From assembly GCF_030384885.1 (NCBI RefSeq), contig NZ_CP128613.1: a stretch of 64,000 nucleotides of DNA; one strand, given 5' to 3'. The notes beneath the pieces were generated by a model. That model made no database searches and was not told where the DNA came from. It saw only the letters and a list, made by a program, of their open reading frames with translations. A program made the translations under genes and the position numbers. Shown here piece after piece: positions 33,710 through 51,742 of this stretch. The stretch comes from Escherichia coli (GTDB lineage Bacteria > Pseudomonadota > Gammaproteobacteria > Enterobacterales > Enterobacteriaceae). Each line of letters begins with the position of its first letter. The first letter of the stretch is position 1.

Positions 33710-34010
33710 CATTTAAGCTGATGACCACCACGCTTTTTATTGACCATTTTGCACGCAAACTGGAAAACCTGGCGTCGTCATCTATTCTTAAAGGGCAAGG
33801 CAACTAAGCCTGCATTAATGCCAACTTTTAGCGCACGGCTCTCTCCCAAGAGCCATTTCCCTGGACCGAATACAGGAATCGTGTTCGGTCTCTTTTTATC
33901 TGTTAAAAGCCAGAAGCATTCCCTTCGCTGACTTTATAGTCAACCATAACACACACTCTACTGTCTGAGTCCAGCGTTTTTTAACATTCTTGTTAAGATT
34001 ATGTGATCTT
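33700..34010 (-). ncRNA. ryeA: Antisense sRNA RyeA (SraC) overlapping sdsR; boundaries approximate
   Basis: Inferred from the known antisense arrangement at the yebY-pphA locus; ends not determined from sequence. Confidence 0.35.
33795..33897 (+). ncRNA. sdsR: Small regulatory RNA SdsR (RyeB)
   Basis: Sequence gcaaggcaactaagcctgcattaatgcc...ggaccgaatacaggaatcgtgttcggtctcttttt recognised as SdsR; 3' terminator hairpin plus T-run; sigma-S-like -10 (tctattctt) just upstream. Confidence 0.75.
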
Positions 34011-48741: not shown

Positions 48742-49410
48742 TCCTTCCTCAATCTTGAGTAACCCCGTCGTTGAAGGGTTACTCAATTCATCCTGATTAT
48801 ACGCACTGTCATGGTGCAACTGCTTCAATTTAAAACTCTGGTCTGACTTCAAATAATTATCATATTATTTATTTGCGTAACGGGATATCAGAAAAAGATA
48901 TTTAGCCCATTAATTTATTAGGATGTTTACATCGGATTTGTGATTAAGCGTGTTATTATTTATTAGCGAAACGTTTCTCTCTTGATTTTTTTGCGCATTC
49001 ATCAATTTTTCTTATTTTAAATTTACAATACCTTTGGGGATTGACTTCTCTTTGGGGTGATTGATAGCCGTTAACTGACTGTTTTATGAGAAAAAGTGAT
49101 ATAACTTTTTATTCATTGCATAGCAGAAAATGTGATATTGCACGCACTATGTAATAACTTCTCCCATTGGCCTGGAACAACTGAACTTATTGAACTATGT
49201 TAGAAAATACGTCAGTTTAAGTATCTGCCTGAACTGGCAAGGTTAAGCACAATGATATATCGGCGCGTATTCCGTTGCATAAGTGTGCAAAAAAAGTGGA
49301 AGACGTATCGAGATTTGTGCGTCTGATCGAGACATGTTTAAAAATGGCTTGCCATAATTAACGTTGTATGTGATAACAGATTTCGGGTTAAACGAGGTAC
49401 AGTTCTGTTT

Positions 49411-49554
49411 ATGTGTGGCATTTTCAGTAAAGAAGTCCTGAGTAAACACGTTGACGTTGAATACCGCTTCTCTGCCGAGCCTTATATTGGTGCCTCATGC
49501 AGTAATGTGTCAGTTTTATCTATGTTATGCCTGCGGGCGAAGAAAACAATCTAA
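49411..49554 (+). CDS. yobF: Small protein YobF
   Basis: 47-aa [50 protein letters not shown] ending 12 nt before cspC; below the ORF-track size cutoff. Confidence 0.8.
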
Positions 49555-49566
49555 GGAATTTTTCAA

Positions 49567-49776
49567 ATGGCAAAGATTAAAGGTCAGGTTAAGTGGTTCA
49601 ACGAGTCTAAAGGTTTTGGCTTCATTACTCCGGCTGATGGCAGCAAAGACGTGTTCGTACACTTCTCCGCTATCCAGGGTAATGGCTTCAAAACTCTGGC
49701 TGAAGGTCAGAACGTTGAGTTCGAAATTCAGGACGGTCAGAAAGGTCCGGCAGCTGTTAACGTAACAGCTATCTGA
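49567..49776 (+). CDS. cspC: Cold-shock-domain protein CspC
   Basis: 69-aa ORF; RNP motifs KGFGFI and VFVHF. Confidence 0.95.
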
Positions 49777-49823
49777 TCGAATCCACTGATCTGAAGTGTG
49801 AAGACACTTCAATCTCGCTATAA

Positions 49824-49849
49824 AGCCTCGTCGAATGCGAGGCTTTTTA
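49824..49849 (+). terminator. Rho-independent terminator after cspC
   Basis: agcctcg-tcgaat-gcgaggct hairpin followed by T5. Confidence 0.8.
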
Positions 49850-49941
49850 CTTTGTTTTATCTTCGCTCCTGGCGTTCGGATATTTGCCCGCCGCGTGATT
49901 CGCGTTACACTTGCGGCCTTTAGTATCCTGCCGGAGTTGTC

Positions 49942-50751
49942 ATGTCGTTTTCCTGTCCACTTTGCCATCAGCCTCTTTCGCGTGAAAAAAACAGCTATAT
50001 CTGTCCCCAGCGACATCAGTTTGATATGGCGAAAGAAGGGTATGTCAATCTGCTGCCCGTTCAGCATAAACGGTCTCGTGATCCGGGCGACAGCGCGGAA
50101 ATGATGCAAGCACGCCGCGCATTCTTAGATGCCGGACATTATCAGCCGCTGCGTGATGCAATTGTCGCCCAACTGCGGGAACGGCTTGATGAAAAGGCCA
50201 CGGCGGTGCTGGATATTGGCTGTGGTGAAGGGTATTACACACACGCATTTGCCGATGCGCTGCCCGAAATCACCACGTTTGGCCTGGATGTCTCGAAGGT
50301 AGCGATAAAAGCGGCGGCGAAACGCTATCCGCAGGTCACTTTTTGTGTTGCTTCCAGCCACCGTTTGCCGTTTTCCGATACCAGTATGGACGCCATAATA
50401 CGTATTTACGCGCCGTGTAAAGCAGAAGAATTAGCGCGAGTAGTGAAGCCCGGCGGTTGGGTCATTACTGCCACGCCGGGACCGCGACATTTGATGGAGC
50501 TGAAGGGGCTGATTTACAATGAAGTACATCTTCACGCACCTCATGCAGAACAACTGGAAGGTTTTACATTACAGCAGAGTGATGAGTTGTGTTATCCGAT
50601 GCGTCTTCGCGGTGACGAAGCCGTCGCGTTATTGCAGATGACGCCGTTTGCCTGGCGTGCGAAACCAGAAGTCTGGCAAACGCTGGCAGCAAAAGAAGTG
50701 TTCGACTGCCAGACGGACTTTAATATTCACCTCTGGCAGCGTTCTTATTAA
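49942..50751 (+). CDS. rlmA: 23S rRNA m1G745 methyltransferase
   Basis: 269-aa ORF; N-terminal Cys4 zinc motif and SAM motif DIGCGEGYY. Confidence 0.92.
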
Positions 50752-51314
50752 CCGTGGAAGTGCGTCCAGAGGATCTGGACGCCGATGCCGATCAGTACCA
50801 GCCCACCGAGAATTTCCGCTTTCTTCCCAATAATTGAGCCGATAAAGCGACCAACCATCATCCCTAATGTCGACATAATCAAGGTTGCACAACCAATGGC
50901 CAATGCGGTCGCGATAATGTTGACCTGCAGGAAGGCGAGACCAACACCTACAGCCATCGCATCCAGGCTGGTGGCAATCGCGGTGGTTACCAGTAGCCAG
51001 AAACCGTGTCGACGGCGCGGTTCTTCATCTTCATCATCTGCGCCACGAAAACCCTCAATAATCATTCGCCCGCCGAGGAATATCAGCAGCACAAACGCAA
51101 TCCAGTGGTTCCATTCAAGGACAAACCGGCTGGCTAACATGCCCATTCCCCAGCCGATCAGCGGCGTCAGGGTTTCGACGGCACCAAAAATAAGGCCAGT
51201 TCGCAAAGCTTCAGAAAATTTCGGTTTATGGAGGGTGGCACCTTTACCGATTGATGCAGCAAATGCATCCATCGACATACCAAACGCAAGAAGAACAGTA
51301 GCAGTGATATTCAT
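50748..51314 (-). CDS. mntP: Manganese efflux pump MntP
   Basis: Track ORF trimmed to [21 protein letters not shown]... (188 aa); 4-bp convergent overlap with rlmA. Confidence 0.9.
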
Positions 51315-51329
51315 GACAACGTCCTGACC

Positions 51330-51500
51330 GGGGTATCCATAAAACACATCATCGCCCCCAGCAAACATGCATACATGAACAACAAACTGCGATGATTTTC
51401 GCGTTCATGCAGGCATAGCGATTGATGTGCATATGGTCTCGCCTGACTGAAAGTGTTCAGTCCGTACGTGCCACGTTTTGCAACGAGTATGTTGACACGT
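51330..51500 (-). promoter_or_regulatory. mntP 5' leader; expected site of the yybP-ykoY Mn2+ riboswitch (boundaries approximate)
   Basis: Long untranslated leader upstream of mntP; riboswitch assignment is from established knowledge of E. coli mntP, not structurally verified here. Confidence 0.45.
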
Positions 51501-51680
51501 ACATTTCCGGAATCTGGAAATCGGCTACTCCCCAAATGAGGGCGCAACATTAACATATTTTTAGAATATAAAACAACTGTTGGGATATATTATTTCAGCA
51601 GTTAATTGATAACGATTGTCATTTAGATTTATATATCAATGAAACGTTAAAATAAATAACAAATAAGGGAAGGGGTAATA

Positions 51681-51732
51681 TAGCCTAAGCTATGTCTGAT
51701 TATTAAAAATACACTAAACATAGCTTTGGCTA
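51681..51732. promoter_or_regulatory. 15-bp inverted repeat with MntR-box-like arms; alternatively yobD terminator
   Basis: tagcctaagctatgt - 22-nt AT-rich spacer - acatagctttggcta; arms resemble the MntR half-site AACATAGC. Confidence 0.3.
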
Positions 51733-51742
51733 AATTGATAAC

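Follow-up and report, generated by a model that had tools for sequence, protein, structure and literature searches.

The regulation of mntP (yebN) in Escherichia coli K-12, together with its MntR sites, was reportedly described by Waters in 2011, and the MntR sites and the riboswitch of K-12 mntP are said to have been treated by Dambach in 2015. In K-12, mntP is induced by Mn2+ in a MntR-dependent manner (PMC11647493; PMC8632737), and this MntR-dependent induction persists without the leader (PMC11647493). H-NS represses the mntP promoter, and this repression is relieved when MntR and Fur loaded with Mn2+ bind there (PMC8632737). The mntP leader of K-12 is a Mn2+ riboswitch, for which Mn2+-dependent switching was reported (PMC11647493; PMC12153347), and Rho terminates transcription within the leader and the early open reading frame (PMC11647493). 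In Bacillus subtilis, four MntR dimers were found to occupy four 18-bp sites within 84 bp at mneP, where they activate Mn2+ efflux cooperatively (PMC11882963).

In our study, the region between yobD and mntP was examined in the window, which is the whole stretch of E. coli DNA that was analysed (64,000 nucleotides). The preferred reading, to which we give a probability of about 0.9, is that this is the known yobD-mntP control region of E. coli, with a two-layer control of mntP by manganese. The biology of the mntP region is already known, and nothing was found that sets the region outside the knowledge of K-12. The mntP gene, encoding a Mn2+ exporter of 188 amino acids, was located at 50748..51314 (minus strand) from the list of open reading frames and from the RefSeq annotation of an E. 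coli record that is 100% identical. Its upstream neighbour yobD (DUF986) was located on the same strand at 51743..52201, again from the list of open reading frames and the RefSeq annotation. Matches to the bases 51200-51800 were obtained in 5,422 of 5,426 complete E. coli genomes, and in each case the match was located between annotated mntP and yobD. An identity of at least 99% over these bases was found in only 2 of the 5,422 genomes, strain 2013C-4282 being 100% identical, and nearly all other E. coli genomes showed an identity of 95-99% (97.8% among the matches listed). The scarcity of near-identical genomes over this segment therefore indicates that the window comes from an uncommon Escherichia lineage. 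The yobD-mntP intergenic region was 98% identical to that of K-12 MG1655; the inverted repeat was identical in both, the aptamer differed at one loop base and the leader differed at 6 positions. A total of 80 mntP loci was taken from Enterobacteriaceae genomes, 77 of which had enough upstream flank, and yobD was present upstream of mntP in all 77. One of the loci retrieved lies on a contig titled 'Chryseobacterium sp. 18061' (L078); it contains an Enterobacteriaceae-type yobD-mntP locus with boxes nearly those of 'Citrobacter sp. 18056' (L074), and the contig is probably a mislabelled or contaminated assembly.

The near-perfect 15-bp inverted repeat at 51681-51732, described in an earlier note on this DNA, was recovered. 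Its arms tagcctaagctatgt (51681-51695) and acatagctttggcta (51718-51732) were complementary at 14/15 positions. A repeat search extended the arms to 51677-51695 and 51718-51736, giving 19 nt (about 19-20) with 89% complementarity and a gap of 22 nt. When inverted repeats with a minimum length of 17 nt and up to 40 nt between the arms were counted, the 64-kb window contained only 8, of which the one between yobD and mntP was the most complementary. The earlier note had likened the arms to MntR half-sites. The proposal of a MntR operator pair is upheld, whereas the status of half-site is not: judged from its sequence, each arm appears to be a whole 20-bp palindromic MntR-type operator (ATAGC-N4-GCTAT). 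Two side-by-side palindromes of one consensus would therefore mainly account for the appearance of an inverted repeat.

The palindrome AACATAGC-N4-GCTATGTT is taken to be the E. coli MntR box. The operator pattern AACATAGCN4GCTATGTT (16 specified positions, core ATAGC-N4-GCTAT) was searched with up to three mismatches, and only two matches were found in the 64 kb, where 0.35 were expected. The proximal operator, GACATAGCttagGCTATATT in the mntP sense, occupies 51677..51696 with its centre at about -147.5, and the distal operator, AATTTAGCcaaaGCTATGTT in the mntP sense, occupies 51717..51736 with its centre at about -187.5. Each of them contained 2 mismatches in the 16 specified positions, and the distal operator begins 6 nt past the yobD stop codon. 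In K-12, the same pattern was found with 0 mismatches in the mntH promoter region and with 3 at the mntS/rybA promoter, in both cases as the sole match in the 1-kb locus. A position weight matrix was trained only on the boxes upstream of mntP outside Escherichia. In the matrix scan, which the earlier note had suggested as a check, the proximal operator scored 26.1 bits and the distal operator 21.5 bits; no other site in the 64 kb scored more than 10.3 bits. With this mntP-box matrix, the K-12 operators of mntH and mntS scored 27.4 and 28.0 bits, respectively. The boxes at mntP are presumably the very MntR sites that were mapped experimentally, to judge by the identity of the motif. At the K-12 mntS/rybA promoter (L004, 556-594), a second and weaker MntR-like box of 15.7 bits was also observed, which abuts the main operator, the starts being 19 bp apart.

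The proximal core was found 159-164 nt upstream of L1 of the riboswitch in 77/77 Enterobacteriaceae loci, and the distal core 201-206 nt upstream of L1 in 69/77, with 9-10 of the 10 core positions matching in both cases. The start-to-start spacing of the operators across the Enterobacteriaceae loci was 40-45 nt, i.e., about four helical turns, and the distances of both boxes from the riboswitch were constant in about 70 species of Enterobacteriaceae. In the Enterobacteriaceae boxes, the half-site positions carried 1.5-2.0 bits each and the central four positions 0.06-0.6 bits; nearly invariant half-sites with a free centre point to a protein-binding site. The distal box was weaker in Escherichia, where it contains a TTTAGC half-site, and in about 8 of the 77 loci it did not reach the threshold. 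No third MntR site was found between the boxes, the gap sequence being unlike the consensus and not conserved in the alignment.

A probable sigma-70 promoter was recognised from conserved blocks at 51547..51576 (minus strand). It contains a -35 element TTGTTT (51571-51576), a spacer of 18 nt and an extended -10 element TGTTAATGT (51547-51555), which ends 7 nt before the putative +1 at 51539. The TTGTTT block and the extended -10 block were conserved in the 77 Enterobacteriaceae loci. A Fur-box-like 7-1-7 site, TGATAACGATTGTCA, with 2 mismatches to TGATAATNATTATCA, was found at 51607..51621, within the conserved multi-species block AAATGAAAATCGTTATCA. It was one of 2 matches to the 7-1-7 Fur motif in the 64 kb, with 0.26 expected; no match was obtained to the 19-bp Fur consensus GATAATGATAATCATTATC when up to three mismatches were allowed. 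The G+C content of 51550-51750 was 22-28%, and a promoter of this composition fits the reported H-NS repression and its relief by MntR and Fur.

Upstream of the transcription start, most positions at which the window differs from K-12 were clustered in or beside the Fur-like box (51598-51625), where the window reads ATGACAATCG...TTAACTGCTG and K-12 reads ATGAAAATCG...TAAAGCAATG. An exact 10-nt direct repeat, AATTGATAAC, was observed at 51604-51613, in the Fur-like box, and at 51733-51742, where it overlaps the end of yobD; with two short copies only, it may be due to chance. A promoter scan gave a match inside the inverted repeat (51706..51677), which was set aside as a single, weak match, fewer matches being found than in shuffled sequence.

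The earlier note expected a yybP-ykoY Mn2+ riboswitch in a mntP leader that ended near 51500. The presence of the riboswitch was confirmed (E = 5e-9), and the end of the leader was shifted: with a putative transcription start at 51539, the mntP 5' leader extends over 225 nt (51315-51539, minus strand), and the aptamer reaches about 40 nt further than was supposed. A leader of 225 nt is also said to have been given by Dambach in 2015, in agreement with a +1 at 51539. The aptamer, a predicted four-way junction with L1 GGGGAGUAG and L3 CAACAUAC, was placed at 51434..51541 (minus strand) from the match to RF00080 and from the consensus fold. In E-value mode, the Rfam model RF00080 (yybP-ykoY, Mn2+) matched 51541..51445 (minus strand) with 41.9 bits and the E-value given above, and L1 (UUGGGGAGUAGCC) and L3 (GUCAACAUACU) of the leader aligned to the model. 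When the whole window was searched with RF00080 in gathering mode, no match was reported at the mntP leader (41.9 bits vs a cut-off of 45). The experimentally validated K-12 mntP riboswitch scored 41.6 bits with the same model and is also below 45 bits; therefore, the shortfall is a property of the model and not of the window sequence. The gathering cut-off does not separate true yybP-ykoY members at the mntP locus. The lack of a covariance-model hit, which the earlier note proposed to count against the riboswitch, is accordingly a misleading sign here, as gathering mode passes over an element whose validated K-12 counterpart scores below the cut-off as well. The RefSeq records of the identical strain and of K-12 MG1655 list no feature between yobD and mntP, and the sub-threshold score (41.6-41.9 vs 45) is likely to be the reason for this empty annotation.

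The RNAalifold consensus of 17 Enterobacteriaceae leaders contained a four-helix junction of 33 pairs, 12 of which showed changes on both sides. The helices were P1.1/P1, two hairpins and the helix bearing L3, with P1.1 closing at 51434-51436. L1 was invariant across the 17 leaders, and L3 was one base off in one of them. When +1 is set at 51539, the adenine of L1 becomes A11 and the adenine of L3 becomes A48, which is the numbering in use for the E. coli mntP riboswitch (PMC12153347). The expression platform was delimited from the leader alignment at 51315..51433 (minus strand) and consists of a variable hairpin followed by the conserved CUGGGGGCGAUGAUGUGUUUUAUGGAUACCCCGGUCAGGAC; the Shine-Dalgarno sequence AGGA (51322-51325) is within a conserved segment of the alignment. 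In the predicted minimum-energy fold, the GGGG of L1 pairs with CCCC at 51330-51333, adjoining the Shine-Dalgarno sequence. This predicted pairing would fit the published model, in which the expression platform invades P1.1/L1 in the absence of Mn2+ (PMC12153347). On the strength of the model match, the conserved L1 and L3 and the compensatory changes in the junction, the leader appears to carry a yybP-ykoY Mn2+ riboswitch, and its switching by Mn2+ is predicted here from K-12. The apex of the expression-platform hairpin (51375-51400) was observed to be 12 nt longer in the window and in K-12 than in three other Escherichia representatives (L005, L008, and L009), and the apical hairpin contained four clustered substitutions relative to K-12.

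An open reading frame of 81 amino acids is present at 51311..51556 (minus strand), as the earlier note had listed. Its ATGs (51556 and 51550) are located upstream of the putative transcription start, and its frame differs from that of mntP. The frame was open over 66-103 codons in Escherichia; in most other genera it spanned 0-39 codons, and in a few it was long again by chance. From the position of its start and the conservation of its frame, the open reading frame appears to be spurious, and on this we agree with the earlier judgement.

Taken together, these features suggest how the two layers may operate. In the first layer, each of the two arms would act as a palindromic operator of its own, 20 bp long, to which the Mn2+-loaded MntR dimer binds; this role is read here from sequence and reported for K-12. 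The operators would be centred some 148 and 188 bp before the transcription start, approximately four helical turns apart, with the Fur box near -77, and both operators and the Fur box would lie in the promoter of 22-28% G+C that is reportedly silenced by H-NS. At high Mn2+, MntR and Mn2+-loaded Fur would bind, the silencing would be relieved and more transcripts would be initiated from the extended -10 promoter. In the second layer, the 225-nt leader would fold into the yybP-ykoY aptamer; Mn2+ would lock the docking of L1 with L3 and the P1.1 helix, so that the 5' strand would be kept from pairing beside the Shine-Dalgarno sequence and translation would begin. Rho reportedly ends transcripts early, in the leader and the early open reading frame, and the activated riboswitch would overcome this only partly.

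The inverted repeat may also be explained in other ways. It could form the 3' end of the yobD transcript, in which case the hairpin would terminate transcription or protect the 3' end, instead of or besides providing MntR operators; the earlier note had named a yobD terminator as an alternative and had proposed that the RNA be folded. In all genera sampled, the repeat follows yobD on the same strand, beginning 6 nt past the stop codon, and its yobD-sense RNA did give a stable fold, with -21.9 kcal/mol and z = -4.8. The variable centres of the boxes are complementary between the arms beyond shuffled or slid controls, as would be expected of a hairpin, and the C-rich, G-poor sense strand past the stem makes a nearby Rho-dependent end conceivable. 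The stable fold, however, lacked the features of a terminator. A terminator scan of 51250-51850 returned no intrinsic-terminator-like site: the stem is A+U-rich and not G+C-rich, the loop is long (22 nt in the window, and given as 20-25 nt overall), and UACCCCUUCCC follows the stem in place of a U-run. Across 66 species, G·U cells (37) were rarer on the sense strand than C·A cells (73), so that no wobble signature of an RNA was seen, and the concentration of conservation in half-sites with free centres is the pattern of a protein site. The E. coli Term-seq tables contain no plus-strand 3' end from the manZ terminator (1904785, +) to the next entry, which is minus-strand rlmA (PMC7815308). The name 'yobD' is also absent from the supplement of that study, a weak negative, as low expression of yobD could mask its 3' end. 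Synteny was uninformative for deciding between an operator and a yobD terminator, since yobD is upstream at every locus retrieved. On balance, a 3'-end function of the repeat is improbable, and the terminator alternative was not borne out. Still further from the evidence is a chance palindrome, or a site of another regulator that has nothing to do with manganese, which is hardly credible in view of two matches within 40 bp where 0.35 were expected in the whole 64 kb, of the same motif at the mntH and mntS promoters and of cores and positions that are conserved over many genera.

A third explanation retains the MntR operators and adds a process at the DNA level that keeps them as mirror copies, either quasi-palindrome template switching at replication or selection for cruciform extrusion. 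The 4-nt centres vary between genera, yet the distal and the proximal centre tend to be reverse complementary (distal/proximal: ATCG/CGAT, CTGA/TCAG, AAAG/CTTT, CATG/CATG, and CCTG/CAGA). The covariation alignment comprised 66 loci, in which a constant linker took the place of the real loop to keep the columns in register. In the four centre pairs, 61.7% of the cells were paired, compared with 40.0 ± 2.5% in shuffles, none of which reached the observed value (0/500), and with 12-43% in slid controls; the covariation score of the centre pairs was 0.427 vs 0.164. Position 18 of the distal box covaried with position 3 of the proximal box (AU 32, GC 20, GU 7). The phylogeny was checked with a rough neighbour-joining tree of one gene (the mntP coding sequence) and Fitch parsimony states: double changes on the same branch ended in a Watson-Crick pair in 11/18 cases, vs 11/37 when the columns were wrongly paired. 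The true antiparallel pairing gave the most Watson-Crick cells of the 24 column permutations and tied first for restoring double changes. All these observations speak for mirror copies, and the missing preference for G·U fits the DNA level rather than the RNA level. Against them stand the small number of informative pairs (4-5, with about 2.2 of the 4 centre positions pairing on average), the roughness of the one-gene tree and the marginal result of the measure of further pair types, which is more robust and which 15/500 shuffles reached. The excess complementarity of the centres is not explained by MntR binding alone, and its likeliest readings are quasi-palindrome template switching or, in addition to MntR binding, a constraint imposed by a hairpin or cruciform. 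Even so, we regard such a DNA-level process as possible rather than probable. Only tentatively do we suggest that the operator pair evolves as one quasi-palindrome, in which the centres, unlikely to be read base by base, are complementary beyond chance and relatedness.

Several further observations were made around the locus. The 9 nt after the proximal box (51650-51676 area) were rich in C and poor in G on the sense strand of yobD/mntP in most species, and this patch may reflect a constraint on composition, for example a Rho loading site. A T-rich tract was present at +17 to +27 past the proximal box, its sequence itself being unconserved. Matches to miRNA families on the repeat (mir-282, E = 0.14-0.65) were rejected as generic hairpin noise. 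Between manZ and yobD, a canonical intrinsic terminator was found at 52206-52235 (GGGGCCTTTTGGCCCC followed by a T-run, minus strand), which coincides with a mapped K-12 Term-seq 3' end; owing to this terminator, transcription of yobD is probably weak or starts at a promoter of its own. The genes rlmA (plus strand) and mntP (minus strand) are convergent with a 4-nt overlap (window 50748-50751), and the K-12 Term-seq 3' end of rlmA at 1906214 (-) is antisense within the mntP coding sequence. Elsewhere in the window, a match to the cspA-thermoregulator family (135 bits) was found at 49391-49851 (plus strand), over the cold-shock gene upstream of rlmA, and the overlapping sRNA pair SraC/RyeA and SdsR/RyeB was found at 33757-33901.

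The preferred reading, with two MntR operators and a riboswitch before mntP, has consequences for annotation. A long inverted repeat placed right after a stop codon can mimic a terminator; here, it would consist of two palindromic transcription-factor sites for the next gene. The Rfam gathering score misses a textbook riboswitch of E. coli that was validated experimentally, which calls for caution with curated cut-offs in annotation. If the mirror-copy explanation is true, then either a hairpin or cruciform form of the operators would be functional, at the DNA level or in the yobD 3' RNA, or template switching would recopy one operator. The possible co-evolution of the operators is a small question on the evolution of paired binding sites.

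The closest described system is the mntP (yebN) region of E. coli K-12, which is the same locus with MntR and Fur acting against H-NS, the yybP-ykoY riboswitch and Rho termination (PMC11647493; PMC12153347). The window differs from K-12 mntP by a few substitutions in and beside the Fur-like box and by four clustered ones in the apex of the platform hairpin, and no sign of a different mechanism was seen. The MntR operators of E. coli mntH and mntS (rybA) have the 20-bp palindrome in common with the mntP boxes. These operators are located at or beside the promoter or the start codon and repress, whereas the mntP pair, at about 150-190 bp upstream, is associated with activation. The mneP gene of B. 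subtilis resembles mntP in possessing several MntR sites upstream of the promoter of a Mn exporter and in being activated at high Mn2+. The mneP sites abut, with a spacing of about 21 bp, and their dimers touch, whereas the two sites of E. coli mntP are spaced at 40-45 bp and the gap between them is not conserved. The mechanism reported for E. coli mntP is the relief of H-NS silencing, and its exporter is MntP, whereas that of B. subtilis belongs to the CDF family. The E. coli alx riboswitch is a member of the same yybP-ykoY family and likewise controls the translation of a Mn2+ exporter (PMC12153347). The alx element is a three-way junction with a pH-linked response, whereas the mntP element is a four-way junction (PMC12153347).
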